Assembly: GCA_030827125.1 (NCBI GenBank)
Contig: JAURFD010000003.1
Span: forward strand, 193,607 to 257,606
DNA: 64,000 nt
DNA from: Candidatus Nanopelagicales bacterium
GTDB taxonomy: Bacteria > Actinomycetota > Actinomycetes > S36-B12
Direction of reading: 5' to 3'
Positions 7,319-64,000 of this stretch are shown one piece after another. Numbering within the stretch: the stretch's first letter is position 1; each line of letters starts with the position of its first letter. The notes below the pieces were generated by a model. The model worked only from the letters and a program-made list of their open reading frames with translations, did not search any database and was not told the origin of the DNA. Position numbers and translations under genes: made by a program.

Positions 7319-8758
7319 ATGCCCACTCCCGATTTCAAGGTCGCTGACCTTTCCCTGGCCCGACTCGGGCGCGATGAGATCCGTTTGGCCGAGCATGAGA
7401 TGCCCGGCCTTATGGCCATGCGTGAGGAGTTCGGCCCGACAAAGCCGCTGAAGGGCGCCCGGATCACCGGCTCCCTGCACATGACGGTGCAGACGGCTGT
7501 TCTCATTGAGACCCTGGTGGAACTCGGCGCTGAGGTGCGCTGGGCCTCCTGCAACATCTTCTCGACCCAAGACCAGGCCGCTGCCGCCGTGGTCGTCGGT
7601 CCCGACGGCACCATCGACGACCCGCGTGGTGTCCCGGTCTACGCCTGGAAGGGCGAGACGCTCGAGGAGTACTGGTGGTGCACCGAGCAGGTGCTGCAGT
7701 GGCCCGATGGCGCCGGCCCCAACATGATCCTGGACGACGGCGGCGACGCCACGCTCCTGGTCCACAAGGGCGTCGAGTTCGAAGCCGCGGGCGTCGTGCC
7801 CAGCACCGATCCCACGGACTCTGAGGAGTACGCCGTCATCTTGGAGACGCTGCGTCGCAGCCTGGCCGCGGATCCGCAGCGCTGGACGACGATCGCCGCC
7901 GGCATTCGCGGTGTGACGGAGGAGACTACGACCGGTGTCCACCGCCTCTACGAGATGCTCAAGGAAGGCCGCCTGCTCTTCCCCGCCATCAACGTCAACG
8001 ACGCGGTGACGAAGTCGAAGTTCGACAACAAGTACGGCTGCCGGCACTCCCTCGTGGATGGCATCAACCGCGCCACCGACGTCCTCATCGGCGGCAAGGT
8101 TGCGGTGATCTGTGGCTACGGCGACGTGGGCAAGGGCAGCGCCGACTCATTGCGCGGTCAGGGCGCTCGCGTCATCGTCACCGAGATCGACCCCATCTGC
8201 GCGCTGCAGGCCGCGATGGACGGCTACCAGGTGGCGCGTATCGAGGATGTGCTCGATACGGCCGACATCTTCATCACGGCGACCGGCTGCAAGGACGTCA
8301 TCACGGCTGAGCACATGGGTCAGATGAAGCACCAGGCGATCGTCGGCAACATCGGGCACTTCGACAACGAGATCGACATGGCCGGGCTCGCCCAACTGTC
8401 CGGTGTCGAGCGCCGCACGATCAAGCCCCAGGTGGATGAGTTCGTGTTCCCGGACGGGCACTCGATCATCATCTTGTCCGAGGGTCGACTGCTCAACCTC
8501 GGCAATGCCACGGGGCATCCGTCGTTCGTCATGTCGAACTCCTTCACCAATCAGGTGCTCGCGCAGATCGAACTCTTCACCCGCCCGGATGAGTACCCCC
8601 TTGGGGTCTACATCCTGCCCAAGCACCTCGACGAGAAGGTCGCGCGCCTGCACCTCGATGCCCTGGGCGCCCGCCTCACCGAGCTTTCCAAGCAGCAGGC
8701 GGAATACATGGGCGTCGACGTTGCGGGGCCGTTCAAGCCCGAGCACTACCGCTACTGA
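7319..8758 (+). CDS. ahcY: Adenosylhomocysteinase (S-adenosyl-L-homocysteine hydrolase)
   Basis: N-terminus [30 protein letters not shown] and NAD site [13 protein letters not shown] at 7319 is preceded by GAGGTG; the track ORF starts 24 nt earlier at a TTG. Confidence 0.95.
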
Positions 8759-14160: not shown

Positions 14161-15240
14161 TCACACCACGGCCCCGGTCACGATGATCGCCGTTCCCTCC
14201 GGGGCGATCTCGAGATCTGATTCACCCGGGGCGATCACCGCGGCGAGACCCTCGGGCACGTGCCGGACCTCGTCCAGGGTGGCGACTCTCGTCGCGCCGT
14301 GCAGGGAGATCACGACGCGATGCCGACCTGTCGCCGAACGCGTCGGGTGGTCGGCCAGCACCAGATCGAAGGGCATGTCTGCGGGTCGCATGACCTCACC
14401 GGCAAACCCGTGCAGCACGGCCGGTGCGTGATCGGGCCGCAACGCTCCCAAGGCCTCGTCCACGGCGATGGGCTTGCTCGTGAGCCCAAACCGCAGAACG
14501 TTGTCCGACGAGGTCATCACCTCAACGCCGAGCCCATCCACGTACGAATGGATGACTCCCGCGGGCACGGCCATGCCCTGCCCGGGATCGAGCCGACCGT
14601 GATCGAGCAGAACGGTGACCAGCACCCCCGGATCGGCCGGATGGGTGGCCGCAACCCGGGCCAGGGCGGACACGGCCTCGGTCGACCAGCCGGCCGCGGT
14701 TGCCGCCGCAACAAGCCGCCGCTCAATGACGGCGCACTCTGCGACCGGCAACGCCAGGATGAGTCCGATCGCGTCGACGCGATCTCCGCGGGCCGCGGCT
14801 TCCACGATGGCCTCGGGCGCTCCAGCACGACGGAGCACTTCGGCGGCCGCCTGGGCATCTCGCCAGCCGGCATGAACGTCGAAGGTCGTGAGCGCGACGA
14901 GCATCTCGCACTTCTCGGTGGGGTCGGCGTAACGCCGGTCTTCCTCGGGCAGGGCCTGGTCCGCCGCCCAGCCCCGCGCTGCGTGCGCGGCGTCGGGGTG
15001 CACCTGCAGGGAGAGGGGGGTCGACGCGGCGAGAAGTTTGACCAGGGGAACACCGTGGTGCTCAGGAAGCTCATCGAGGCTGCGACCGGCATCGGCACCC
15101 TCGGTGACGATGGCCGCCCCCGCCGGGTGCGTGCCGAACCACAGTTCGGCCTGCGGATTGCCGGTGCGCCCACACCAGCGGGCGAGCCCGTCGACGACAC
15201 CCCAGTCGTATGCCTTGAGTGCTCCGCGAACAACGTGCAC
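14161..15240 (-). CDS. manA: Mannose-6-phosphate isomerase, class I
   Basis: KAYDWG, ELWFGTHP and Zn-ligand region LSLQVHPD. GTG at 15240 lies 1 nt after the upstream TGA. The track ORF extension to 15411 overlaps the Trm112-like gene. Confidence 0.85.
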   Translation of the reverse strand: MHVVRGALKAYDWGVVDGLARWCGRTGNPQAELWFGTHPAGAAIVTEGADAGRSLDELPEHHGVPLVKLLAASTPLSLQVHPDAAHAARGWAADQALPEEDRRYADPTEKCEMLVALTTFDVHAGWRDAQAAAEVLRRAGAPEAIVEAAARGDRVDAIGLILALPVAECAVIERRLVAAATAAGWSTEAVSALARVAATHPADPGVLVTVLLDHGRLDPGQGMAVPAGVIHSYVDGLGVEVMTSSDNVLRFGLTSKPIAVDEALGALRPDHAPAVLHGFAGEVMRPADMPFDLVLADHPTRSATGRHRVVISLHGATRVATLDEVRHVPEGLAAVIAPGESDLEIAPEGTAIIVTGAVV

Positions 15241-16858: not shown

Positions 16859-17281
16859 TCAGCCGTCCTGACCGGGCAGCGCGCGAAGATGCCCGCGCCG
16901 CACACCCTCCGAACCCACCGCGGGTCGCTGCTCCACCTCGTCGAACAGCGTCGCGGACGTCGCCGGAGCAGCAGCAGCCTCGCGAACCGCGTTGGCGAGT
17001 GCCTCAAGATCGTCACCCGAAGGTCCGGCCGCGGGATCGGGTTCGAGGTGCATCACCTGCCAGCCACGTGGCGCGGTGAGCCGGTCGGAGTGGATCTCGC
17101 ACAGGTCATAGCTGTGGGGATCCGGCGCCGACGACAGGGGGCCCACCACAGCGGTTGAATCGGCGTAGACGTAGGTCAAGGTCGCGGTCGCGGCGCGTCC
17201 GCAGGTAATGCGCGAGCAGCGGCGTCGGTGTCCCACGAATGCGGACGCTACCGGCCGAAGCGGCGCGTCCGAGGTCGCCAC
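16859..17281 (-). CDS. DUF3499-domain protein
   Basis: 140 aa. CSRITCGRAATATLTYVYADSTAVVGPL...PHSYDLCEIHSDRLTAPRGW matches my memory of the DUF3499 signature. Conserved position beside pmm. Confidence 0.7.
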   Translation of the reverse strand: MATSDAPLRPVASAFVGHRRRCSRITCGRAATATLTYVYADSTAVVGPLSSAPDPHSYDLCEIHSDRLTAPRGWQVMHLEPDPAAGPSGDDLEALANAVREAAAAPATSATLFDEVEQRPAVGSEGVRRGHLRALPGQDG

Positions 17282-19075: not shown

Positions 19076-22000
19076 GGTGACACCTCCACTCCATCTTCAG
19101 CGAGCACGGCCACATCGTCCTCGTCGATCTCATCATCGGCGACGTCGTCGTCGCGGACATGTCGGCGCCCAGGGAGGGCGAGGACCACGACGACGATCAC
19201 CAGGATGAGTTCACTCCATAGCCACCGGGTGCGTTCCCCGCTGTCCGCCGAAACCACGAGCGCGCCCGATGACTCCGGCGGGAGGGTGAACGACTGCAAC
19301 CCGTCAACTTCCGCCGCCAACTCCGTAGTGACCAGGGTGGCTCGCCACCGAGGGTCAGCTGTTTGAGCGAGGCTCAACGTCCCGCTCTCCTCGACCAGCA
19401 GGCCGCGGGCCAGTGGATCACCGTCGCGATTGACGACCGCCACCGGCGATGTCGCGTCGTCCGAGTCAATGCGCACGCGTGCCGTCGGGAGGACCACTCG
19501 CCAGAGCACTTCACCATCCTGCCCAGCCACGCGTCGAAGGCCGGGGGCCGAATCAAGGGTTCTCGTCACGCTGTCGGCGCGCGGTCCCTCGGTTTGCAGG
19601 ATGACGTAGCGCACCGCGTATTGGGCGAGGCCAACGACCTCGTCACCGCCGCGTCCGGACACCAGGCCGGAGACCAAACGATCCAGGCGTTCCCAATCCT
19701 GGGCCGGAGGTGCCACCGATCCGTCGCCGAGAGTCGGACCGGTGCCGTTGATGAGGGTGTACCCGACGGAGTCGACGTCCGGTGCGAGCAGAAGCGTGCG
19801 CGGCGCCTCGGGTCCGATGACCTCAGCGACGACAAACGGGGGCAGCAGGGCCGGGTCCGCTCGGTGGACAGGTCCGGAAGCCCCGGTCAACCACACCGCC
19901 GCGTAGGCGATGGGGACGAGAACGGCGGCCGCGGTCGCCAGCAGCGATACCGGCTGGCGCCAACTGAACGTCGAACCGGCCATGGACGCGCGCAGGCCAT
20001 CACCGGCGATGGCGACGGCCACGATGAGTGCGGCGCCGAGGAGGGCCACCGCCATGCCCGGCCAGAGTCGGACCGGGTCGGGAACACTGGGAACGGTCAC
20101 CTGAATGCCGGACAGGATGAGCGCCAACAGATAGGCAGCCAACGCCACACCCCACGCGGTGACGATCGCCGCCCGCCGGTGCGGACGCAGGATGGCCAGC
20201 ATGGCGGCCACGACCAGCCCGGCACCGATGAAGGTGAGGCTGACGCCCGGTCCACCGGGATCGAGGAAGGCGAGCTGCACCGCGCCCGCCGAGGGCTCGA
20301 CCAACGCCGGATCGAAGGCACCAAATTCGCCGAGGAAGAGAATCGGGTTCGTGACGAGCCGGAAGGACCACGGCACCAGCAGGGCCAACGGAACGAGCAC
20401 GAGGGCAAAGGCGCGCAGGACGAGTGTCACCGACAGGCTCCGGCGCAGGACGGCGGCGATGAGCGCAGCCACCACAGCGACGACGACCCACAGCCACACG
20501 ACGGGAGCGCCGGCAATCGCCAGGGCCAGCAGAAGCGAGGCAATCCACGGCGTCCGACCGCTCGATGGGGCAAGGTCGGTGGCAACGCCCAGGGAGCGAA
20601 CAACGAAGCGCGCCGCCAACGGCAGCACCACGATGGACAGCAGGACGCCGAGGCGACCAGTGGCCATGCCCGCCGTCAGGGTTGGCAGCAGTGCGTACGT
20701 CGCAGCAGCCCAGAGCCGAACCGGCCGCGAGGAGATCACGCCGAACATCGCGGACCACGCCGACAGACCGGCGAGCGCGGACGCCAGCAGCAGCGATAGG
20801 CCCACCGTCAGTGAGGCCTTGCCCAGGAGGAGGGTGGAGAGGGCGGCGAGGACGGCGATGGCGGGGGCGGCGGGCTCGAACGAACCAGGACCCACGTCAT
20901 GCCAGGGCCGCAAGTAGGTCGACCACAGGTCTGCGGCCCCGTCCGGACTCGGCAGGAGCGCGCCGCCGAAGAGGGAACCCTCACCCCACCACAGGCTGCG
21001 CCCGGCAACCAAGGTCACCAGGACCAGGGCGAGCGTGAGTCCCACGGTGGGCCGGGTGAGCGTGCGACGCAACCAGTTGCCGGCCGGATCATCGAAGAGG
21101 TCGGCATCGTCGGAGACCGGACCTGACTCCAGTGCTCCGGCGCTCGCTCCCGAGCCACGGCCCGAGGCCATGATTCCCCCGAGCGCTTCGATCGCCGCGC
21201 GGGCCTGCGTCGAGGCCCGCGGTCGCAGATCGTGCACGGCCGCATGGGACGACATGACCGACGTCTCGGCGCAGGACCGCCGCGCCGTGCGCAGGCGTCC
21301 CGGATGCGCAATGAGGACCCCGAGTGCCGCGAGTTCGTCACCGGCCCGGCGCAGGTCCTTGCCGAGCAGGTAGAGCAGCGAACGCAGCAGGGTGCCGACC
21401 ACGAGTCGGACGGCGGTGAAAGGCGCACGCCAGGCGGGCGTCTGCACCATGAGGACGTGGAGTGCCGACCGTCGGTCGAGTCGGTGCCCGCGTCCTGGAG
21501 CCGAGGAGCCTTCTCGACGACCGTGGTACGAGGCCTCACGGTGGTGGATCACTGCCTGGGGAACGACACGCACCTCGTAACCGGCGCGCCAGACTCGCCA
21601 ACAGAAGTCCAGGTCATCGCGGTAAAGCGGCAGCGCGGGATCGAACCCGCCGAGCTGGTCCCACACATCGCGTCGGATGAGCATGCCGGCGGAGCCCACC
21701 GCGTGAACGGCGTCGCGATCATCGTGCTGTCCCTGATCGTGCTCTCGCCGTTCCAAGCCCGTGACGCGGCGGCCGGATCCGGTGATGCTGAAGCCCATCT
21801 CGAGCAACAGCCGGCGGTCATGCCAACCTCGCGACTTGGGACCGAGGACGGCCGCGGAGGGGTGGGCCTCGGCGGCGAGGAGCAGTTGTTCGAGACAGTC
21901 CGGGGCCGGAGCGGAGTCGTCGTGCAGCAGCCAGATCCACTCCGTGGTGTCGACATCAAAGGCCTCATCGACATCGCTGCGAAGGACACCCGAACCCAAA

Positions 22001-54284: not shown

Positions 54285-57092
54285 CTACCTCATGACCGCG
54301 GCCGGTGACGACGACGCCCAGTCGGGAGCGGCGAGCGTCGGAGACACCTCTACCGCCGTGACCTTGTACTCGGGGCAATTCGTGGCCCAGTCGGAGTATT
54401 CGGTCGTCACAACATTGGCGCCGCTCTCCGGGTAATGGAAGGTCGTGTAGACGACACCCGGCGGCACGCGATCGGTGATGCGCGCGCGCATCACTGTGGA
54501 CCCGACCCGGCTCGCGAGGGTCACCCATGAACCGTCCGTGATGCCCCGCATCTCGGCGTCGGACTCGTGGATGTCGATGACATCCTCGTCATGCCACGTC
54601 ACATTGGCCGTTCTGCGCGTCTGCGCCCCTACGTTGTATTGGCTGAGGATGCGCCCGGTGGTGAGCAACAGCGGGAACCGTCGAGTGCTGCGCTCCTCGG
54701 TCGGCACGAACGGCGTCACCTGGAAGGCCCCCATGCCACGGACGAAGCCATCCACATGCATGATCGGCGTGCCGAGAGGGTGGTCGGCGTTGCACGGCCA
54801 CTGGACACTCCCCACCTGATCAAGGAGGTCGAAGGAGACCCCCGCGAAGGTCGGCGTGAGCTCGGCGATCTCATCCATGATCTGACTGGCCGAGTCATAG
54901 TGCATCGGATAGCCGAGAGCGGTGGCCAGATCACACACGACCTCCCACTCGGCTTTGCCCGTGCGCGACGACATGACCGGCCGGACACGATTGATTCGCC
55001 GTTCGGCGTTGGTGAAGGTGCCGTCCTTCTCCAGGAAGGACGTGCCGGGTAGGAACACGTGCGCAAAACGGGCCGTCTCGTTGAGGAAGAGATCTTGCAC
55101 AATGACCAGATCCATCGCCGAGAGCGCCGCCTCGACGTGCCGCGTATTGGGGTCCGACTGGGCGATGTCCTCACCCTGGATGAACAGTGCGCGGAATTCC
55201 CCAGTGACCGCGGCATCGAGCATGTTCGGGATGCGCAGACCGGGCTCTTGCTGGATGGTCACGCCCCACAGCGCCTCGAACTGCTCACGCACAACATCGT
55301 CGGAGACATGCCGATAGCCGGGCAATTCGTGGGGGAAGGAACCCATGTCGCAGGATCCCTGAACATTGTTCTGTCCGCGCAGAGGGTTTACGCCCACGCC
55401 GTCGCGACCAATATTGCCCGTTGCCATCGCGAGGTTGGCCATGGCCATCACCATGGTGGATCCCTGACTGTGCTCGGTCACGCCGAGGCCGTAGTAGATC
55501 GCCGAGTTGGGGCCGGCGGCGTAGAGGCGTGCAGCGGCCCGAATCTCCCCGGCCGGCACTCCGCTGGAGCGCTCCGCAGCCTCGGGGGAATTCTCCTCGC
55601 CTCGAATGAACTCCTCCCACGCGGCGAAACTCACCGGATCGCAGCGCTCGGAAACGAACTCACGGTCGATCAGACCCTCGGTCGCCACAACGTGCCCCAT
55701 GGCGTTGATCACCGCGACGTTGGTGCCGGGCTGCAGCGGGAGGTGGTAGTCAGCCTCGATATGGGGTGAGCGAACCAGATCGGTCTTGCGGGGGTCGACG
55801 ACGATGAGATGCGCGCCCTCGCGCAGGCGTCGCTTCATACGCGATCCGAACACCGGATGGGCATCGGTGGGGTTGGCACCGATCACCATGATGACGTCGG
55901 ACTCAGCCACCGACTTGAAGTCCTGGGTGCCCGCTGACGTGCCGAAGGTCTGCTTCAGTCCGTACCCGGTGGGCGAGTGGCACACGCGCGCGCACGTGTC
56001 GACGTTGTTGGTGCCGAAGGCCGCACGGACCATCTTCTGGACGACGAACACCTCTTCATTGGTGCACCGCGAGGAGGTGATACCCCCGATGCTGTCCACG
56101 CCGTGCCGAGCCTGGACATCGCGCAGCCGTTCGGCCGCGTAGGTGAGCGCTTCCTCCCAGCTCGCCTCACGCCACGGATCGTCGATGGACTCACGAACCA
56201 TGGGCACCGTGACGCGGTCGGCATGGGTTGCGTAGCCCCAGGCGAAACGGCCCTTGACGCATGAGTGGCCCTCGTTGGCGCCGCCCGCCTTCTCCGGGAC
56301 CATGCGCACGAGTTCGTCTCCGCGCAGTTCGGCCTTGAAGGAGCAGCCCACTCCGCAGTAGGCGCAGGTGGTGAGCACGGTGCGGGTGGGCATCCCCAGG
56401 TCGATGACCGACTTCTCTTCCAAGGTCGACGTGGGGCATGCCTGGACACAGGCCCCACACGAGACGCACTCGCTGGAGAGGAAATCACGGCCGCCGGGGC
56501 TCACCTTGGAATCGAAGCCTCGACCTTCGATCGTGAGCGCCAGCGTGCCCTGGACTTCATCACAGGCGCGCACACAACGACTGCAGACGATGCACTTGGA
56601 GCCGTCGAAGGAGAAGTACGGATTGGACGCATCCGTCGGCTCATCGAGGTGATTCGCACCGTCGCTGCCGAAGCGAACGTCGCGCAGGCCGACGACACCG
56701 GCCATGTCCTGCAACTCGCAGTCGCCGTTCGCCGGGCAGGTCAGACAGTCCAGTGGGTGATCGGAGATGTAGAGCTCCATCACTCCGCGACGCAACTTCT
56801 CCAGCCGGGGAGTCTGCGTGCGAACTGACATGCCCGGCTCGCACGGTGTCGTGCAGGAAGCGGGCGTGCCCTTCTTGCCGTCGATCTCGACGAGGCACAG
56901 GCGACACGATCCGAAGGGCTGGAGGGAGTCGGTGGCGCACAGTTTGGGGACCGTCATGCCGGCTTCCGCCGCGGCGCGCATCACCGACGTGCCTGCCGGC
57001 ACCTGGACCGCGACCCCGTCGATGAGGACCTCGACCGACTCCGCCGACCTGCTGGCCGGGGTCCCGAAATCTGGTTCGTGCAAGAGCGTCAT
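54285..57092 (-). CDS. fdsA: NAD-dependent formate dehydrogenase alpha subunit (molybdopterin, Cys type)
   Basis: N-terminal 2Fe-2S and 4Fe-4S Cys clusters, and a MopB domain with DTCARVCHSPTG (Cys ligand, no in-frame TGA). ATG at 57092 overlaps the fdsB TGA. Confidence 0.93.
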   Translation of the reverse strand: MTLLHEPDFGTPASRSAESVEVLIDGVAVQVPAGTSVMRAAAEAGMTVPKLCATDSLQPFGSCRLCLVEIDGKKGTPASCTTPCEPGMSVRTQTPRLEKLRRGVMELYISDHPLDCLTCPANGDCELQDMAGVVGLRDVRFGSDGANHLDEPTDASNPYFSFDGSKCIVCSRCVRACDEVQGTLALTIEGRGFDSKVSPGGRDFLSSECVSCGACVQACPTSTLEEKSVIDLGMPTRTVLTTCAYCGVGCSFKAELRGDELVRMVPEKAGGANEGHSCVKGRFAWGYATHADRVTVPMVRESIDDPWREASWEEALTYAAERLRDVQARHGVDSIGGITSSRCTNEEVFVVQKMVRAAFGTNNVDTCARVCHSPTGYGLKQTFGTSAGTQDFKSVAESDVIMVIGANPTDAHPVFGSRMKRRLREGAHLIVVDPRKTDLVRSPHIEADYHLPLQPGTNVAVINAMGHVVATEGLIDREFVSERCDPVSFAAWEEFIRGEENSPEAAERSSGVPAGEIRAAARLYAAGPNSAIYYGLGVTEHSQGSTMVMAMANLAMATGNIGRDGVGVNPLRGQNNVQGSCDMGSFPHELPGYRHVSDDVVREQFEALWGVTIQQEPGLRIPNMLDAAVTGEFRALFIQGEDIAQSDPNTRHVEAALSAMDLVIVQDLFLNETARFAHVFLPGTSFLEKDGTFTNAERRINRVRPVMSSRTGKAEWEVVCDLATALGYPMHYDSASQIMDEIAELTPTFAGVSFDLLDQVGSVQWPCNADHPLGTPIMHVDGFVRGMGAFQVTPFVPTEERSTRRFPLLLTTGRILSQYNVGAQTRRTANVTWHDEDVIDIHESDAEMRGITDGSWVTLASRVGSTVMRARITDRVPPGVVYTTFHYPESGANVVTTEYSDWATNCPEYKVTAVEVSPTLAAPDWASSSPAAVMR

Positions 57093-58636
57093 GACGACAC
57101 CTCCGCGTTGCGATGGAAGTCCTCCGTGAAGTGGTTCAGTGCGCTGCGGACGGGGAGCGGAGTCAGTCCACCCATCGCGCACAACGATCCGTCCGTCATC
57201 GTGTCGCACAAGTCCTCGAGGAGTTCGAGGTTGTCCTGCCGGTCGACTCCGGCCACGATGCGGTCGATGACCTCCACCCCGCGGACCGATCCGATCCGGC
57301 AGGGCGTGCACTTGCCGCAGGATTCGGCGGCGCAAAAGGCCATCGCGAATCTCGCTTGCGCGGCCATGTCGACCGTGTCGTCGAACACCACAACTCCGCC
57401 GTGGCCGAGCATGCCGCCGACCTCCACGAGGGACTCGTAGTCGAGTGAGACATCCATCGCGGTCTCGGGCAGGTAGGCCCCGAGCGGTCCGCCCACCTGC
57501 ACGGCCCGCACGGGTCGACCACTCCGTGTCCCGCCGCCGTACTCCTCGACGAGTTCCCGCAGCGTGAGCCCGAAGCCGCGCTCCACGATGCCACCATGCG
57601 CGACGTTGCCCGCAAGTTGGAATACCTGGGTGCCGCGGGAACGATCAACGCCGAGAGCCTGGTAGTGGCCGGCGCCCTCAGCGAGGATGCCCGGAACGGC
57701 CGCCATCGTGAGGACGTTGTGGACGAGCGTGGGCCGACCGAAAAGTCCGGCGAGCGCAGGGATGGGCGGCTTGGCGCGCACCATGCCGCGCTTGCCCTCC
57801 AAACTCTCCAGCATCGCGGTCTCTTCGCCGCAGACATAGGAGCCCGCTCCCACGGCGACCCGGACATCAAAGGCGAGCCCGGATCCGAGTACATCGGCAC
57901 CGAGCCAGCCATCGAGACGTGCGATGTCGATCGCGGTCCGCATTGTGGCAATGGCATCGGGATATTCCGAGCGGATGTAGACGATGCCCTCGGACGCGCC
58001 CACGGTGACTCCGGCGATGACCATGCCCTCGAGCAAGGTGAAGGGATCGCCCTCCATGAGCATGCGATCGGCGAAGGTTCCGCTATCTCCCTCATCGGCG
58101 TTGACGACGACGTACTTCGTCGCGTCTGACGCCTCGAGAACCGTGCGCCACTTGATGCCGGCGGGGAAGCCGGCGCCGCCGCGGCCACGCAGGCCGGACG
58201 CGAGAACTTCGGCGACCGCCTGATCTCCGCCGAGTTCAAGAGCGCGGGTCAGGCCGCGCAGGCCGCCGGTTGCCCGGTAGGACTCGAGGTCGAGGGGGTC
58301 GAACAGGCCCATCCGGGCGAACGTGACGCGCTGCTGGCTGGCCAACCAGGGCAGGTCATCGACAAAGCCGACCCGAAGCGGGTGGTCACCGCCATTGAAG
58401 AAATCCGCTGCGATCAGGCCGGGTACGTCATCAACCGTGACCGGGCCATAGCCGATCCGTCCCTGTGGTGTCTGCACCTCGACGAGCGGCTCCAGCCACA
58501 GCGCGCCGCGCGAACCGTTGCGCACCAATTCAAGGTCGACGTGCTCGGCGACCGCCCATTCCGCAATGCGGTGGGCCACCTCATCGGCACCCACCGAGCG
58601 GGCAGCGCTGTCGCGCGGGACATAGATGGTGATCAT
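57089..58636 (-). CDS. fdsB: Formate dehydrogenase beta subunit (NuoF-like, FMN/NAD-binding)
   Basis: GRGGAGFPAGIKW and the 4Fe-4S motif ESCGKCTPCR. Confidence 0.9.
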   Translation of the reverse strand: MITIYVPRDSAARSVGADEVAHRIAEWAVAEHVDLELVRNGSRGALWLEPLVEVQTPQGRIGYGPVTVDDVPGLIAADFFNGGDHPLRVGFVDDLPWLASQQRVTFARMGLFDPLDLESYRATGGLRGLTRALELGGDQAVAEVLASGLRGRGGAGFPAGIKWRTVLEASDATKYVVVNADEGDSGTFADRMLMEGDPFTLLEGMVIAGVTVGASEGIVYIRSEYPDAIATMRTAIDIARLDGWLGADVLGSGLAFDVRVAVGAGSYVCGEETAMLESLEGKRGMVRAKPPIPALAGLFGRPTLVHNVLTMAAVPGILAEGAGHYQALGVDRSRGTQVFQLAGNVAHGGIVERGFGLTLRELVEEYGGGTRSGRPVRAVQVGGPLGAYLPETAMDVSLDYESLVEVGGMLGHGGVVVFDDTVDMAAQARFAMAFCAAESCGKCTPCRIGSVRGVEVIDRIVAGVDRQDNLELLEDLCDTMTDGSLCAMGGLTPLPVRSALNHFTEDFHRNAEVSS

Positions 58637-59169
58637 GCGCTCACCGCCGCTCGCACCGAGTCAACCGTGCATCGACCGCGCAACCGTCCATTGATCATCG
58701 CTGCCGGACCGAGCGCGCAGTCACCAAGACAGAACACCTCACTGATTTCGACGTCGCCGTTCGTTTCCCCCATGCGTACGCCGTATGCGTCCTCGACCGC
58801 GGCGACCAACTCGCGCGAACCCTGCGCCTGACACGCTTCTGCCACGCACAGCGCGATCACGGTCTGCGGGGGCGGGGTACGCCGGAGGTCGTGATAGTAG
58901 GTGAGGACTCCATAGACCTCAGCGCGAGTCACGTTCAACGTGTCCGCGATGAGGTCGAGCGACTCGTCGGGGACATAGCCGAACGTCTCTTGCAGGACTT
59001 GAAGAGCGGGGAGCACCAGGCGTTGGTGGGGCGCGAGCGCTGTGAGCACGACCTGCGCCTGCGATGCCGACCAGGGGGCGTGACCGGACACGGGCACTGC
59101 TCCTTCGCGAAGACGGCGGATGGCATCAGCAACTGCTGCGATGTCCTCTAAGGGTAGGCGACACGGCAC
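58633..59169 (-). CDS. fdsG: Formate dehydrogenase gamma subunit (NuoE-like 2Fe-2S)
   Basis: CVAEACQAQG...CLGDCALGPA cluster motif. I chose the GTG at 59169; the track ORF extension to 59445 overlaps the fdhD region. Confidence 0.78.
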   Translation of the reverse strand: MPCRLPLEDIAAVADAIRRLREGAVPVSGHAPWSASQAQVVLTALAPHQRLVLPALQVLQETFGYVPDESLDLIADTLNVTRAEVYGVLTYYHDLRRTPPPQTVIALCVAEACQAQGSRELVAAVEDAYGVRMGETNGDVEISEVFCLGDCALGPAAMINGRLRGRCTVDSVRAAVSA

Positions 59170-59227
59170 GCGCGGGAAAGGGGGTACGCCCCCTAGGCTG
59201 GCAGCGAATACCGAAGGGAGAGTCCGC

Positions 59228-60052
59228 ATGGGATCCACACAGCGCCGGCGCGTCGTGCACGTGCGCGAGGGCGCTGCCCACGCCGCTCCCGACGCGCTCG
59301 CCCTGGAGGAACCCCTAGAAATCGAGGTCGATGGGGCCACCGCCTCGACAACGATGCGCACACCGGACCACGATGTGGAACTTGCGCTCGGTTGGTTGGT
59401 CTCCGAGGGGGTTATCGCCCATCGCGACGACATCGCCGAGGCCAAGGAATGCTTCGATCGCGCCGGGGACTCAGACGAGGACGAGGTACGCCGGATCGTC
59501 CAGGTCCGTGGCCGCCTCCCCCTTCAGGTAACGCCTCGATTGCATGCCACGTCCAGCGCGTGCGGAATCTGCGGCTCTGACCTCATCGATCTCACCCAAC
59601 GGACACGACGCTGGCCACTTGACACCGACGACACACGCTTCACGCTTGAAGCTGTGCTCGCTCAGCCGGAGGCACTCCTGGCCGCCCAACGCGGCTTCAC
59701 TGCCTCCGGTGGTCTGCACGCGGCTGGGCTCTTCGACCTCGACGGCGAACTCGTCTGCGCGCGCGAAGACGTCGGGCGTCACAATGCCGTCGACAAGGTC
59801 ATCGGATGGGCGCTCCTCGAAGACCGCCTGCCACTGCGGGGACACTCTCTGCAGGTCAGTGGACGCGCATCGGCGGAGCTGGTCCACAAGGCCGTCGTTG
59901 CGGGAATCCCTCTGCTGGCCTCGGTGTCGGCGCCGACGACCCTCGCAGTCGACCTCGCACGCGAAACCGGTCTGACCCTGGTCGGCTTCGTCCGAAACGG
60001 CAACCTCAACGTGTACTCGGGCGGGCAGCGACTCGGGATCGCCGCCGACTAG
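59228..60052 (+). CDS. fdhD: Formate dehydrogenase accessory sulfurtransferase FdhD
   Basis: SSACGICG catalytic Cys loop and GRHNAVDKVIG. ATG at 59228. Divergent from fdsG with a 58-nt spacer. Confidence 0.88.
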   Translation: MGSTQRRRVVHVREGAAHAAPDALALEEPLEIEVDGATASTTMRTPDHDVELALGWLVSEGVIAHRDDIAEAKECFDRAGDSDEDEVRRIVQVRGRLPLQVTPRLHATSSACGICGSDLIDLTQRTRRWPLDTDDTRFTLEAVLAQPEALLAAQRGFTASGGLHAAGLFDLDGELVCAREDVGRHNAVDKVIGWALLEDRLPLRGHSLQVSGRASAELVHKAVVAGIPLLASVSAPTTLAVDLARETGLTLVGFVRNGNLNVYSGGQRLGIAAD

Positions 60053-60080
60053 TCAACGGGCGATGTCGTCACCCGTTGAC
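60052..60080. terminator. Hairpin between convergent genes
   Basis: GTCAACGGG-N11-CCCGTTGAC, a 9-bp perfect stem filling the 32-nt gap between the fdhD stop and the 60085 ORF stop. Confidence 0.45.
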
Positions 60081-60084
60081 GTCG

Positions 60085-60480
60085 TCACTCGTCGATGTCC
60101 CGCAGCTCAGCCAAGAGGTCGAGTCGCACATTCGATTGCGCCGCCTCGTGCGACACACGCGCGGGCGGCGCCGGACGTGAATCCAGTTCCTGTGTCGCCA
60201 CCGATCCCTCTGACTCACTCAACTCTGGCGCGTACATCCTGATGAGATCGAGGTCAGCGTCTGCCTGCTCGGGATGGACCCGAAGTTCCGGAGCGATGTC
60301 ATCGAGAGAGGAGGCATGGCCAGCTGCCGCCGCGAACCAGTCCGGGGTGCTCGACCGCAGGATCGGGAAGTGTCGATCACCGGCTCCGGTCGCGATTTGG
60401 TCGAGGGGAATGCCCTGGCGCAGCGCGACGAGCGCAAACGCCGACTGTGTCATGGCCGCATAGACCGTCCCGGCCTCCAC
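60085..60480 (-). CDS. Hypothetical protein, last gene of the ParA-like operon
   Basis: 131 aa. GTG start overlaps the ParA-like TAG by 1 nt. Acidic, with the C-terminal amphipathic tail LDLLAELRDIDE. I recognise no family. Confidence 0.45.
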   Translation of the reverse strand: MEAGTVYAAMTQSAFALVALRQGIPLDQIATGAGDRHFPILRSSTPDWFAAAAGHASSLDDIAPELRVHPEQADADLDLIRMYAPELSESEGSVATQELDSRPAPPARVSHEAAQSNVRLDLLAELRDIDE

Positions 60481-61991
60481 TAGTTGCCCCAGCGGAAGAG
60501 CCCGCGCTTGCGTGCCGCCTCACCACCGGGATCGGTGGGCAGCGTCGGGGCCGCCGGCACTTCACCGTCATCGCTGTCGACGTACGACTCGGCAAGTTCG
60601 GCCTGGGGCAGACACGCGCGAGCAAGTTGGTTGTAGGCCGGACCGAGGAGCGGGTGGTTCACCAACTCGTGCATACGGTGAAGATTCATGGCGGTAAGGA
60701 CGTCCTTCGTCGCCAGCGGGATCACACCGACAACCGGCACACCGAGACCCGCCGCGAGGATCTGCTCGCGCTCCATGCCGACGTTGGCGAGGGACTGGTT
60801 GACGATGATGCCGATCTTGTCGCGCGGGATTCCGAGGCCAGACTCGTCGACGGGTGCGGTGATCTCGCGAAGAGCACGCGCCATGCCTTGCACCGCGGTC
60901 GAGGCAAGTGTCGTGACGAAGAGGATCTCGTCGGCCTCCTTGAGCGCCACATCCGCGATGAGTGGATCGAGGTACTGCACCGAAGTGTCGATGACGACCA
61001 CGTCGTACATCCGCTGCAGGCTCCGGACGATGGCGCGGTAGAACTCAGGGCCCACCGTGTCCGCCGTGCGCGGACGGATCGGCGCGAGGAGGGTGTCGAT
61101 CCCAATGTCCTCGGCGGGCACGAGATTGCGCCGAATGCGCTCCTCATCCCAGACCGGCTGGACCCGGATATTCAACGCGGTCGGCATGAAGCGGCCAATG
61201 AGGGAGGCCACCTGGCCGTCACGGGTGTCGAGGTCGACCAGGCAAACCGATAGAGGGTTGCCGGCTTCGCGGGAGGCTCGCGCGATGGTCGCCGCGAGCA
61301 GCATGGACGCCGTCGACTTGCCCGATCCACCCTTGCTGGACGTGACGGTAATGGTGACCTGACCGGGCAAGCGCGGCCGGCTCAGTAGGTCCATGCTCGC
61401 CGCTGCCGGGTAGCCCGAGTCGGTGACGACGTCACCCTGGGGGTCGGGCTCAGGCATGCCCGTGATGGGTGGCAGCGATGGCACGTTGGATCCGGGGGCT
61501 TGCACGCTGGCCCGCCGCTCCTGCAGCAGGTCGACATCGCACTCCGGTGGCCAGTCCTCCGGGAAATCGACAAACTCATTCGTCTGCGCGCGCACCGCAT
61601 CAAGGAAGAGGCGACCACCCTGCTGCGCGGGCAGCAGGTGATAGGTGAGGTCGCTCTCCGACAATCCCTGCGCCGAGGCTGCTGCCGCGATGGCATCCCG
61701 CAAGGCATCAATGTCTTCGGGTTTCCATACCACAACGAAGACCGACGCACCCGCATTGGCCATGGCGACGATGGCTCGTGCTGTCTGCGCGCGCTCGTCG
61801 GACCGGTCGTCGCCGAGGGCGTCGGAGAAGACCAGGATGCGTGACTTGACGTCGAGCTGGCCGGTGGAGAGTGCCTGCCACATCGACGCGACATTGGGCT
61901 GGCGATCCTGCACATTCCACTGCGCGCCAGAGGAGCGGAGAACTTCGTGGATGACCGGTTCGGCGACCACGATCACACCGGGGGCGGTCAC
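60480..61991 (-). CDS. ParA/MinD-superfamily ATPase with an N-terminal receiver-like domain (CpaE/TadZ-like architecture)
   Basis: 503 aa. An alpha/beta N-terminal region of about 200 aa, a Pro-rich linker, deviant Walker A SSKGGSGKST, and Walker B-like VVVIDT. Confidence 0.8.
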   Translation of the reverse strand: MTAPGVIVVAEPVIHEVLRSSGAQWNVQDRQPNVASMWQALSTGQLDVKSRILVFSDALGDDRSDERAQTARAIVAMANAGASVFVVVWKPEDIDALRDAIAAAASAQGLSESDLTYHLLPAQQGGRLFLDAVRAQTNEFVDFPEDWPPECDVDLLQERRASVQAPGSNVPSLPPITGMPEPDPQGDVVTDSGYPAAASMDLLSRPRLPGQVTITVTSSKGGSGKSTASMLLAATIARASREAGNPLSVCLVDLDTRDGQVASLIGRFMPTALNIRVQPVWDEERIRRNLVPAEDIGIDTLLAPIRPRTADTVGPEFYRAIVRSLQRMYDVVVIDTSVQYLDPLIADVALKEADEILFVTTLASTAVQGMARALREITAPVDESGLGIPRDKIGIIVNQSLANVGMEREQILAAGLGVPVVGVIPLATKDVLTAMNLHRMHELVNHPLLGPAYNQLARACLPQAELAESYVDSDDGEVPAAPTLPTDPGGEAARKRGLFRWGN

Positions 61992-62212
61992 CGCGTTGCT
62001 CCAATGCCGGCGGGCCCGTACAACACGAATTCCTTGCGGGCTGCGGGCGACTCATCGGCGAGTCCCGGGGGGCCGTCCGTGTGGGTGTCGTCCACGACGG
62101 GGTCGGCCGCGAAGAAGTTGGATTCGACCGGATCCTCGTTTACGAGATCAAGATTGGCCAGGATGGCCTGCTGATCAACCTGTCCGAATGCCGAGCGCTT
62201 CGCTTCAGGCAT
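61988..62212 (-). CDS. Small hypothetical protein (about 74 aa)
   Basis: The ATG at 62212 overlaps the upstream gene end by 8 nt, and its TGA overlaps the ParA-like GTG (GTGA). Acidic, with no hydrophobic segment. Confidence 0.35.
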   Translation of the reverse strand: MPEAKRSAFGQVDQQAILANLDLVNEDPVESNFFAADPVVDDTHTDGPPGLADESPAARKEFVLYGPAGIGATR

Positions 62213-62636
62213 CGAGCGCCTCGGTCGATTCGAGGAGCGGGGCCGCCTCGTCGACCGCGGCAAATGCCACGAGCGTGCTGTGCGTGTCTACGCGCAGGTC
62301 CAAGGCTTCCAACGGGATATCCGCTGGGATGCCCTCATGGCGATGCCACTCCATGGACCAGTCCACCATCTGTCCGGTGGATTCCGCCGACCGCACGTCC
62401 GTGAGGTAGGGGTGGCCGGAGGGGATTCGCGCCTGGACAGTCGTGCGTAGGGAAGCAGACCAGTGAGGGGGCAGCTCGCAGAGGATCTCCACGAGGAATT
62501 GACCGTCACCGACCGGGGCCACGGCGCTGACTCGACCGCGGCCCTCGCGTACCAGGAACTGCCGACCGGCCTGGTCGACATCCACCCAGGAGCGCAACGG
62601 GACGTCCTTCCTCGCAGCATGCGGCAGCCGCCTCAT
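62205..62636 (-). CDS. Hypothetical protein (143 aa)
   Basis: ATG start in the same-strand operon context. I recognise no family. Confidence 0.45.
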   Translation of the reverse strand: MRRLPHAARKDVPLRSWVDVDQAGRQFLVREGRGRVSAVAPVGDGQFLVEILCELPPHWSASLRTTVQARIPSGHPYLTDVRSAESTGQMVDWSMEWHRHEGIPADIPLEALDLRVDTHSTLVAFAAVDEAAPLLESTEALDA

Positions 62637-62694
62637 GCTTCCGCTTAGGGTATCGGCTCAGCTCGCCTCACGCCGCCCCCTGAGCGCAGGTGGA

Positions 62695-63141
62695 TTATCG
62701 AGCGTTCGGGGCACCGAGGACCGGGCTCGTGGCCACGTGGCCCGGAGCCTCGTCAGTGGCGAGCAGCCAGGCACCCTCGACTCGGCGCAGGAGGGAATCC
62801 ACACCCTCACCCGGCTGCAGCAGGGCCACGCCGGCATTGGGCTGGGGCTCCGCCAGTCCCGAGACCAAACGCCGTACGACATCTGCCGCCGTGGGTAGAT
62901 CGCCCACACCGGTCAGCAGCAGCACGACGCGGTCAGGGCTCCCCCGCCAGATCCAGATCCGGTCTCCATCGCGCAGGACGGCACTCAGTGACTGGGCATC
63001 GACCTCGGCACTCCACGCGCCGTGACCGGCCAGAAGGGCGAGCCCATGCCGTTCGCCCCGACGCTGGGCACGCTCGAGCCACACCGATAGCTCCGGTCGA
63101 GGATCGAAGTCGGCGATGGGCGGTAGTGGCGCGTCACTCAC
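62695..63141 (-). CDS. Hypothetical protein (148 aa), possibly a degenerate GGDEF-like fold
   Basis: GTG start 27 nt after the prepilin peptidase stop. The segment LRDGDRIWIWRGSPDRVVLLL...NAGVALL...LLRRVEGAWLLA follows the spacing of the GGDEF core but lacks GG[DE]EF. Confidence 0.45.
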   Translation of the reverse strand: MSDAPLPPIADFDPRPELSVWLERAQRRGERHGLALLAGHGAWSAEVDAQSLSAVLRDGDRIWIWRGSPDRVVLLLTGVGDLPTAADVVRRLVSGLAEPQPNAGVALLQPGEGVDSLLRRVEGAWLLATDEAPGHVATSPVLGAPNAR

Positions 63142-63168
63142 GGGACCCCCAGCATCTCGGCATCTGCG

Positions 63169-63975
63169 TCATCCGACGACTCCGCCCCAGTATGCCGCGG
63201 CGATGGGCTCACCGACGAGAACCCCGATCAGCGTGCCGAGCAGAAGGAACGGCCCGAAGGCGATCCGAGAGCCGCGCCCAGCCCGATGCGCAATCATCAG
63301 CGCGATCCCCGCGAGGGCACCGACAATGAAGGCGGCCAGGAGACCGACGACCGCGCTGCCGAGGCTGATCCACCCCAGCAGGGCGCCCAGGGAGGGCGCA
63401 AGTTTGACGTCACCGAGGCCCATTCCTCGCCCGCGGCTCAGGGCCCACAAACCGCCCACCACCCCGAGCCAGATCACGACCCCCCAGGCCGCCGCCAGCC
63501 AACTGCCCGGATCGCCGAGGAGTTGAGCAAGAAGCAGGCCGCCCGCGGTCACGGCGAGCATGGGCAGCGTCAACGCGTCGGGCAGTCGATGGTGGTCGAC
63601 GTCGATCATGGCCAAGCACAGTCCGACCAGTCCCCAGGCCAGCAGCAAGGGCAACAGACCGAGCCGATCGGCCTGCCAGGCCCACCACCCGAGGGCGACG
63701 AAGAGGATTCCAGCGGTGAGTTCCACGAGCGGGTAGCGAGCGGAGATGTGCGCACCGCACGCGCGACAACGGGCGCGCAGGAGCAGCCAGGAGATCACCG
63801 GGATGTTGTCGCGGCCGAGGATCTGGGCACCGCACGACGGGCATGCCGAGCGAGGGCGGACGACGGATCGACTCTCGGGCACGCGGGCGATGACGACGTT
63901 GCCGAAGGAACCGAAGATGAGACCCAACCCGAAGAGCAGAACGGCGGCAAAGGCCAGGGTTGCCGCGTCACTCAC
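63169..63975 (-). CDS. Prepilin peptidase (A24 family aspartic protease)
   Basis: N-terminal Zn-knuckle CPSCGAQI...CRACGAHI. Catalytic Asp regions MIDVDHHRLPD and GMGLGDVKL. Polytopic membrane protein. Confidence 0.85.
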   Translation of the reverse strand: MSDAATLAFAAVLLFGLGLIFGSFGNVVIARVPESRSVVRPRSACPSCGAQILGRDNIPVISWLLLRARCRACGAHISARYPLVELTAGILFVALGWWAWQADRLGLLPLLLAWGLVGLCLAMIDVDHHRLPDALTLPMLAVTAGGLLLAQLLGDPGSWLAAAWGVVIWLGVVGGLWALSRGRGMGLGDVKLAPSLGALLGWISLGSAVVGLLAAFIVGALAGIALMIAHRAGRGSRIAFGPFLLLGTLIGVLVGEPIAAAYWGGVVG

Positions 63976-64000
63976 TTGCGCGACTCATTGATCTGCTCCG

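Follow-up and report, generated by a model that had tools for sequence, protein, structure and literature searches.

A MinD/ParA-class ATPase and three conserved small proteins encoded at the end of a type IVa pilus locus in uncultured Nanopelagicales-like actinobacteria

Introduction

The positioning of a type IV filament machine by a ParA/MinD ATPase has a precedent in TadZ, and a recent preprint calls ParA/MinD-like ATPases 'uniquely found in Tad systems' when the machines of type IV pili are compared (bioRxiv 10.64898/2026.07.08.737194). ParA/MinD genes are usually located beside the genes for their cargo (PMC10241942). In several actinobacterial families, type IV pilus genes are under the reported or predicted control of WhiG homologues (PMC12871210). 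Here, we describe six genes at positions 60085–63975 of a 64-kb window, the window being the whole stretch of DNA analysed (64,000 nucleotides of contig JAURFD010000003.1 from a Candidatus Nanopelagicales bacterium). They encode a prepilin peptidase, an ATPase of the MinD/ParA class and four small proteins. An original prediction, made from the letters of the window, had taken them for a self-contained orphan module around a CpaE/TadZ-like ATPase. We find that they are the end of a type IVa pilus (T4aP) locus, and we discuss a possible role of the ATPase in the organization of the pilus machine.

The Nanopelagicales-like freshwater and estuarine actinobacteria to which the host belongs are abundant and uncultured. 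To our knowledge, the placement of T4aP in monoderm bacteria is largely unexplained. A conserved MinD-class ATPase with dedicated partners in a monoderm T4aP locus is a concrete and testable candidate for this task.

Results

The genes belong to a type IVa pilus locus

An exact look-up found the identical 503-residue ATPase on 22 metagenomic contigs. One of these, L003, agrees with window positions 60001–64000 in 3989 of 4000 bases (99.7%), and the prepilin peptidase PilD on near-identical contigs differs from that of the window at one residue. The locus was read from L003 and its upstream continuation L036, combined with family scans. At the upstream end, a 541-residue protein with a prepilin N-terminus is followed by open reading frames (ORFs) of 207, 706 and 244 residues; there are minor-pilin- and GspK-like hints. 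A divergent PilM (Pfam PilM_2; 126 bits for TIGR01175, just below the cut-off of 133) precedes a 249-residue ORF and a weak PilO/GspM-like gene. The locus further encodes PilT (TIGR01420, 354 bits, above the cut-off of 319.1), PilB with MshEN and T2SSE domains, PilC (T2SSF, 1.2e-64) and a pilin of 147 residues with a class-III signal (N_methyl, 5.9e-8). Four soluble proteins, referred to by their lengths as p142, p357, p238 and p255, are encoded between the pilin and PilD. PilD is the last canonical pilus gene of the locus. It is an A24 prepilin peptidase of 268 residues (63169–63975, minus strand; Pfam A24_N_bact 9.2e-33 and Peptidase_A24 5.9e-13) with about eight hydrophobic segments.

PilB, PilT, PilC, PilM/N/O, a pilin with class-III signal and PilD, the set that we used to assign a locus to type IVa, are encoded together. 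Window positions 60085–63975 are the 3' end of a complete T4aP locus of about 21 kb from an uncultured Nanopelagicales-like actinobacterium, and we regard the membership of the block in this locus as close to certain. The locus starts just past the edge of the 64-kb window. The orphan, self-contained status given to the module was an artefact of this edge, and the case illustrates that a window edge can mimic orphan genes. It had also been stated that there is no pilus machinery, which is correct inside the window, but the near-identical contigs carry PilC, PilT2, PilB, PilT, PilM/N/O and pilins upstream. PilD, the link of which to the ATPase had been called unclear, is a part of the same pilus locus. 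As the finding that would count against it, the original prediction had named canonical tad or pil genes directly upstream together with a Flp pilin. A pil locus does lie there, and the orphan interpretation is thereby refuted; the locus is not of the Tad type and has no Flp. The assignment as a Tad locus was rejected because TadA, TadB and TadC, paired platform genes and Flp are absent, PilB, PilT, PilC and PilMNO being found instead.

Gene order is conserved in related loci

A genome scan with the ATPase yielded 29 species-level loci, all from metagenome-assembled genomes (assigned to Nanopelagicales, Actinomycetes or Actinomycetota), with ATPase identities of 57–86%. Gene order in these relatives was traced by tblastn with all proteins of the locus. 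The order PilB-PilT2-PilC-pilin-p142-p357-p238-p255-PilD-p143-(p74)-ATPase-p131 was found in about 25 loci, wherever the flank suffices, and the position of PilD is kept in all related loci with enough flank. The gene for p131 is located directly downstream of the ATPase gene in 28 of the 29 GTDB loci, which is every locus examined (the remaining one, L031, gave a tblastn match to p131 and was not extracted), including two without pil genes. On the other side, fdhD is located downstream of the module only in the nearest relative, while the downstream neighbour varies elsewhere. The module is therefore linked to the pil genes rather than to the genes on its other side.

Several observations concern the genes between PilB and PilD. 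The locus contains two PilT-class ATPases, the second of which (L003:1625–2992, 455 residues) has a Pro/Ala-rich N-terminal extension of about 100 residues. Protein p357 (L003:5374–6447) is conserved in every locus. Its last 200 residues show similarity to sigma-WhiG (6PFV/6PFJ, E 5e-4) and FliA, and are preceded by an N-terminal extension of about 150 residues of no assigned fold; p357 may be a degenerate sigma-28-like factor within the pilus operon. Protein p255 (L003:7253–8020) shows weak winged helix-turn-helix matches in its C-terminal part and a weak match to DUF4388, which we take to be PATAN-like, in its N-terminal part. Protein p238 (L003:6444–7160) is strongly conserved (mean column identity 67%) and has the invariant terminal residues C206, H219, C225 and H228, a pattern suggestive of a metal site. 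In profile searches against the PDB, p255 had no match and p238 only noise at E ≤ 1, and neither protein has a Pfam match. A literature search for type IV pili of Nanopelagicales yielded only papers on Methylophilaceae.

The ATPase unit is preceded by a putative sigma-28-type promoter

The six minus-strand ORFs of the block, with their coordinates, overlaps and the hairpin that closes them, are real as originally described. PilD is followed after 27 nt by p148 (62695–63141) and this after 58 nt by p143 (62205–62636). From there on, the genes overlap: p143 and p74 (61988–62212) by 8 nt (ATGCCTGA), p74 and the ATPase gene (60480–61991) by the 4 nt GTGA, and the ATPase gene and p131 (60085–60480) by 1 nt. 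Every ORF of the block has the pattern of a real gene in its G+C content at the three codon positions (GC1 > GC2 < GC3), the genome having 66% G+C.

The -10 consensus of sigma-28 (FliA/SigD/WhiG) promoters is GCCGATAA. The 58-nt gap before p143 contains the sequence CCGATAC (62650–62656, minus strand), a sigma-28/WhiG-type -10 element which occurs at only four sites in the whole window. The GCCGATAA-like -10 upstream of the unit is conserved across orthologues. A GGTCCGATAC-type element, which resembles a sigma-28/WhiG -10, recurs between genes at five places in the pilus locus (L036:930–960, 8680–8700 on the minus strand, 14300–14325, 17235–17260 and 19360–19380). On L036, five of the 14 CCGATA sites fall into the 4% of intergenic DNA (binomial P = 1.8e-4), and each of the five points at a downstream gene, namely the minor-pilin operon, pilM, the pilin gene, p255 and p143. 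Of 18 loci compared, all have the form CCGA[TA]A upstream of the pilin gene and 17 have it upstream of p143; in many loci GGTTCA is located 16–17 nt upstream of this motif. Thus, p143-p74-ATPase-p131 is a translationally coupled unit behind a putative sigma-28/WhiG-type promoter with the same element as the major pilin gene. To judge from these motifs, the module is apparently co-regulated with the pilin.

In 11 of the 29 loci, p74 and the ATPase gene are separated by an inserted gene for a FliA/WhiG sigma factor (TIGR02479, 222 bits, cut-off 189.6), which is read from the opposite strand. It is located at L030:8920–9747 (minus strand) and at the equivalent place in L009, L010, L012, L013, L016, L018, L029, L032, L033 and L035. 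The window organism and 18 of the 29 loci have no whiG gene at this place. Loci L009, L010, L013–L018, L020, L021 and L025 have a -10-like motif, TAGAGT or TACAGT, 60–130 nt before the ATPase start. It takes the place of CCGATA in many loci in which p74 does not overlap the ATPase gene, with or without the whiG insert, and suggests a separate, housekeeping-type transcription of ATPase-p131. A scan of the window region for sigma-70 promoters gave no match.

The ATPase combines a MinD-like domain with an additional N-terminal domain

Pfam recognizes only generic ParA/MinD-type domains in the ATPase (AAA_31, 8e-9; CbiA; MipZ). Among the NCBIfam models, the highest score is that for MinD (TIGR01968, 44.5 bits, cut-off 212.9), followed here by the ParA partition model NF041546 (31.7 bits, cut-off 180) and the CpaE_hom_Actino (Ssd) model TIGR03815 (22.9 bits, cut-off 154.45). 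All 426 relatives are unnamed or automatically named 'BcsQ'. A role in cellulose synthesis was rejected, as BcsQ is an automatic Joint Genome Institute (JGI) name and the locus contains no bcs genes. Plasmid or chromosome partition was likewise rejected, as the ParA partition model stays below its cut-off and the locus contains no ParB-like gene.

The deviant Walker A sequence KGGSGKST (residues 220–227; 61311–61334, minus strand), the Pro-rich linker and the separate N-terminal domain of the original description are all present. In an alignment of 42 sequences, K220, G221, G222, S223, G224, K225, S226 and T227 are invariant, and with them both the signature lysine and the P-loop lysine. The same holds for D253/D255 and D335 at the Walker A' and B positions. 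The protein is a P-loop protein of the MinD/ParA class with all nucleotide-binding residues intact and with an extra N-terminal (beta-alpha)5 domain. The conserved residues indicate a working deviant-Walker-A ATPase, which would be capable of ATP-sandwich dimerization if it behaves as the ParA/MinD family does.

In the AlphaFold2 (AF2) model (predicted local distance difference test, pLDDT, 79.7), the N-terminal domain, a disordered Pro-rich linker and the MinD-like domain can be distinguished. The N-terminal domain (residues 1–160; 61512–61991) has a pLDDT above 90. The linker (residues 161–210; 61362–61511) has values of 42–68, and its length varies among orthologues. Strands (E) and helices (H) of the N-terminal domain follow each other as E5-9, H12-19, H34-43, E52-56, H64-79, E83-88, H91-107, E117-121 and H122-137, which corresponds to a predicted receiver/flavodoxin-like topology. 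Its invariant residues are W38, G44, S50, D57 and M77, and D57 ends strand 3. A Foldseek search of the PDB with the model returned MinD (4v02, 1hyq, 3q9l), HypB, ParA (3ea0) and Soj as top matches (E 2e-8 to 5e-6), while the best matches of a sequence-profile search of the PDB were weak, to FlhG (4RZ2, E 0.0068) and FleN (5J1J, E 0.25).

The protein ends with the basic-hydrophobic tail RKRGLFRWGN (60483–60512, minus strand). Nearly all 42 family members have the consensus RRRGLFRR at their very end, after an acidic disordered spacer. G497, F499, R500 and R501 are nearly invariant, and the tail is disordered in the AF2 model. It is very short. Its likeness to the membrane-targeting tail of MinD is taken here as a lead only.

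Three of the four small proteins are conserved with the ATPase

The four small proteins are soluble and acidic as predicted, with isoelectric points of 4.2–5.3 and no hydrophobic segment. They had also been proposed as cargo and adaptor proteins of the ATPase. Conserved partners are p143, p74 and p131, none of which has a match in Pfam or NCBIfam; p148 is restricted to the nearest relative.

Protein p131 was aligned from 26 orthologues, in which P46, W48, F49, A51-53, P64, E65, L66, D78, L79, Y83, L122 and L123 are invariant. It carries the motifs TPxWFAAAA, APEL and DLIxVYAPE and ends, after an acidic spacer, with the helix LGLLKELxxLD (60088–60123). The amphipathic tail noted earlier at the C-terminus, LDLLAELRDIDE, is kept in all 26 orthologues.

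Protein p74 is acidic and mostly disordered. It consists of two short motifs, S(V/A)FGxVDQ...SxFF at the N-terminus and RxxFILxGP at the C-terminus, which are joined by a variable acidic linker. The 13 aligned orthologues are 69–144 residues long, F9, D27, R59, F62, L64, G66 and P67 being invariant. This protein is often missed by BLAST, and ORFs with the same end motifs are present in the gaps of related loci.

For p143, translation probably begins at TTG 62597 (codon 14), which gives a protein of 130 instead of 143 residues, because a Shine-Dalgarno sequence (AGGAAGGA) precedes this codon, the N-termini of orthologues agree with it and a leader of normal length results. The annotated ATG is only 13 nt past the -10-like element, and the database entry for p143 has 130 residues. 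W17, R30, G32, W93, W97, P104 and D117 are invariant in the alignment. The family is narrow: an exhaustive search of 1.84 billion representatives found about 45 clusters, and a word-indexed search gave seven matches. AF2 predicts a small beta-barrel with one helix (pLDDT 90.2, predicted template-modelling score 0.80). The closest PDB folds are weak matches to the oligonucleotide/oligosaccharide-binding (OB) folds of single-stranded DNA-binding protein, the lysyl-tRNA synthetase N-domain and AB5 B-subunits (E about 0.02, template-modelling (TM) scores 0.35–0.41). By its model, p143 is a conserved small beta-rich protein with an OB-like fold. Sequence profiles of p143 and p131 had no match in the PDB at E ≤ 10.

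By tblastn, protein p148 was found in the closest relative, L007, and in none of the other loci. Gene callers place its start differently and report 129 residues, and Pfam yields only a weak match to GGDEF_2 (E 0.043). The ORF is located upstream of the putative promoter of the module. We consider p148 to be probably a clade-specific, acidic, soluble ORF at the tail of the p255-PilD transcription unit. That it has no function in the module, being a young, clade-specific or even spurious ORF, is a serious possibility to which we give a little less than an even chance. Its identity to the protein of the closest relative is only 64%, while its neighbours are 85–88% identical; in other loci, its position is occupied by just 100–150 nt or so of promoter DNA; and the disputed start and the poor family match fit this explanation as well. 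However, the G+C pattern is of the coding type (GC1 0.83, GC2 0.54, GC3 0.73) and the ORF is intact in two lineages.

Discussion

Comparison with described systems

The ATPase resembles TadZ/CpaE in its two-domain architecture, in which a linker connects an alpha/beta domain of predicted receiver-like topology at the N-terminus with the P-loop domain of the ParA/MinD class, in being encoded inside a type IV filament locus, and in its presumed role in placing or assembling a machine. Its KGGSGKST sequence fits the TadZ pattern K/RGGxGxS/T (bioRxiv 10.64898/2026.07.08.737194), which does not discriminate, as the sequence is also a full MinD/ParA deviant Walker A. In contrast to TadZ/CpaE, it is encoded among PilB, PilT, PilC and PilMNO and not with TadA/B/C or Flp, it has the full MinD-type Walker A including the P-loop lysine, and it has a conserved RRGLFRR tail and three dedicated small partners which are absent from Tad loci. 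Moreover, the curated actinobacterial CpaE/Ssd model gives only the 22.9 bits mentioned above against a cut-off of 154.45, and the PDB matches do not include 3FKQ, the structure of TadZ. The designation as CpaE/TadZ-like can thus be kept for the ParA/MinD class, the extra N-terminal domain and the linker, but not for the family.

With FlhG/FleN, the protein shares the MinD-class ATPase serving a surface appendage and the sigma-28 gene that is adjacent in 11 of 29 loci; partners acting through short peptides are plausible in both. The differences are the absence of flagellar genes and of FlhF, the extra N-terminal domain and a similarity near noise (E 0.007–0.25). The closest solved folds are those of MinD (4v02, 1hyq and 3q9l; E about 1e-8 to 1e-6, target TM scores 0.68–0.73), the Walker A pattern KGGxGK[ST]T is identical, and the extreme C-terminus is basic-hydrophobic in both. 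However, MinC and MinE are missing, the protein has a 210-residue N-terminal extension, its context is a pilus locus and TIGR01968 remains below cut-off. Finally, the combination of a sigma-28-type -10 with a whiG-type gene agrees with the reported or predicted control by WhiG/FliA of type IV pilus loci in Rubrobacter, Actinoplanes, Cellulomonadaceae and other Actinomycetota. In the passages on those loci that a term search of the article returned (PMC12871210), there is no mention of a ParA/MinD ATPase or of these small proteins.

A possible organiser of the pilus machine

On balance, we favour, with modest confidence, the explanation that the module is a TadZ/FlhG-like organiser of the T4aP machine, with p131 as obligate partner and with p74 and p143 as adaptors, as context and motifs suggest. 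ATP would drive the formation of a sandwich dimer in which the signature lysine K220 takes part. This dimer would be held at the membrane or on a partner by the invariant RRGLFRR sequence at the C-terminus, and the N-terminal domain and linker would attach it to a landmark or to one of the cytoplasmic pilus components PilM, PilB, PilT and PilC. Like MinE, ParB and the FliM N-peptide with their respective ATPases, the small acidic proteins could act through short motifs as adaptors or ATPase stimulators. The obligate partner would be p131, and the connection to the pilus machine would likely be made by p74 and the OB-like p143. The net role would be to determine the assembly site of T4aP machines and perhaps also their number, a job done by TadZ/CpaE for Tad pili and by FlhG for flagella.

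A number of results weigh against this explanation. No NCBIfam model reaches its cut-off for the ATPase. The N-terminal domain shows no measurable similarity in sequence to receivers: hhalign aligned it with CheY at a probability of 1%, and a Pfam scan of 16 such domains returned no Response_reg but scattered weak matches, four of them to VWA_CoxE. TadZ (3FKQ) is found neither in the top 50 fold matches nor among the PDB sequence-profile matches. The loci were gathered solely via the ATPase, so that T4aP loci without the module fall outside the sample. Co-regulation with the pilin is not universal, given the TAGAGT-type promoter of the ATPase gene in relatives. In two loci, L027 and L028, an ATPase of 298 residues without N-terminal domain and linker is followed by p131, with no pil genes up to 10 kb upstream; ATPase-p131 therefore appears as the minimal unit, which is able to leave the pilus locus. 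The mechanism itself, including any contact of the ATPase with Pil proteins or with the small proteins, was derived from context and motifs. In L027 (10193–11490) and L028 (481–1838), the ATPase-p131 pairs adjoin unrelated genes, for a W/Y/P-rich membrane protein and a lipase-like protein.

Alternatively, the ATPase could be a regulator of expression in the manner of FleN/FlhG, which together with p131, p74 and p143 controls the sigma-28-like factors of the locus, namely WhiG/FliA and the divergent p357. The expression of pilus genes or the number of pili would be set in this way, without any physical positioning of the machine. The genes flhG and fliA are adjacent in flagellar clusters. A similar adjacency exists in the loci with a whiG/fliA insert, FlhG and FleN are the best PDB profile matches of the ATPase, and the same operon encodes the sigma-WhiG-matching p357 as well as p255 with its weak winged helix-turn-helix and PATAN-like matches. 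We nevertheless consider this regulator unlikely. The PDB matches hardly exceed noise and are largely confined to the P-loop, the locus contains no FleQ-like enhancer-binding protein, whiG is absent beside the ATPase gene in the window organism and 18 of 29 loci, and the MinD-type tail and intact dimerization lysine suit a membrane-cycling organiser at least equally well.

Still less probable is a self-contained ParA-type positioning module for a cargo unrelated to pili, which would stand beside pil genes only by inheritance. The pairs in L027 and L028 and the housekeeping-type -10 that ATPase-p131 has of its own in many loci would fit such a module. However, the linkage to pil genes is kept in about 25 species while the other flank changes, module and pilin gene have a promoter motif in common, the module is translationally coupled in the window genome, and genes for another cargo (ParB, carboxysome, chemotaxis, cellulose synthase) are absent from the locus. 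The MinD score of 44.5 bits, the weaker Ssd/CpaE_hom_Actino score of 22.9 and the fold closest to MinD might rather recall a regulator of the division site or septum, of the actinobacterial Ssd/MinD kind, located at the end of a pilus locus by chance. We regard this as very improbable, as both scores are far below the cut-offs (212.9 and 154.45), as neither the window end nor the upstream 20 kb contains minC, minE or division genes, and as context and promoter tie the ATPase to the pilus genes.

If the organiser role holds, pilus positioning by ParA/MinD ATPases is not unique to Tad systems. New here is a ParA/MinD ATPase with three unassigned partner families inside a monoderm type IVa locus; the novelty of this counterpart is modest and follows from the description of TadZ as unique to Tad systems. 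More tentatively, and with somewhat less than an even chance in our estimate, actinobacterial T4aP may have acquired an organiser of their own independently of TadZ, equipped with three new partner families and wired to WhiG/sigma-28.

The edge of the locus

A search of window positions 59000–64000 against Rfam (E ≤ 0.1) gave no RNA family. The genes for p131 and fdhD converge, and the 32 nt that separate their stop codons are filled by a 12-bp hairpin (60052–60080) with a minimum free energy of -26.5 kcal/mol (z -2.61 versus shuffled sequences). It was not picked up by a scan for terminators with T-run, and is a candidate bidirectional terminator without such a run. The convergent neighbour is a formate dehydrogenase cluster (54285–60052), in which fdhD is encoded on the plus strand and a NuoE-like protein, a NuoF-like protein, a molybdopterin FdsA-like protein of about 935 residues and FdsD on the minus strand. 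As it is common only to the closest relative, this cluster marks the edge of the pilus locus.

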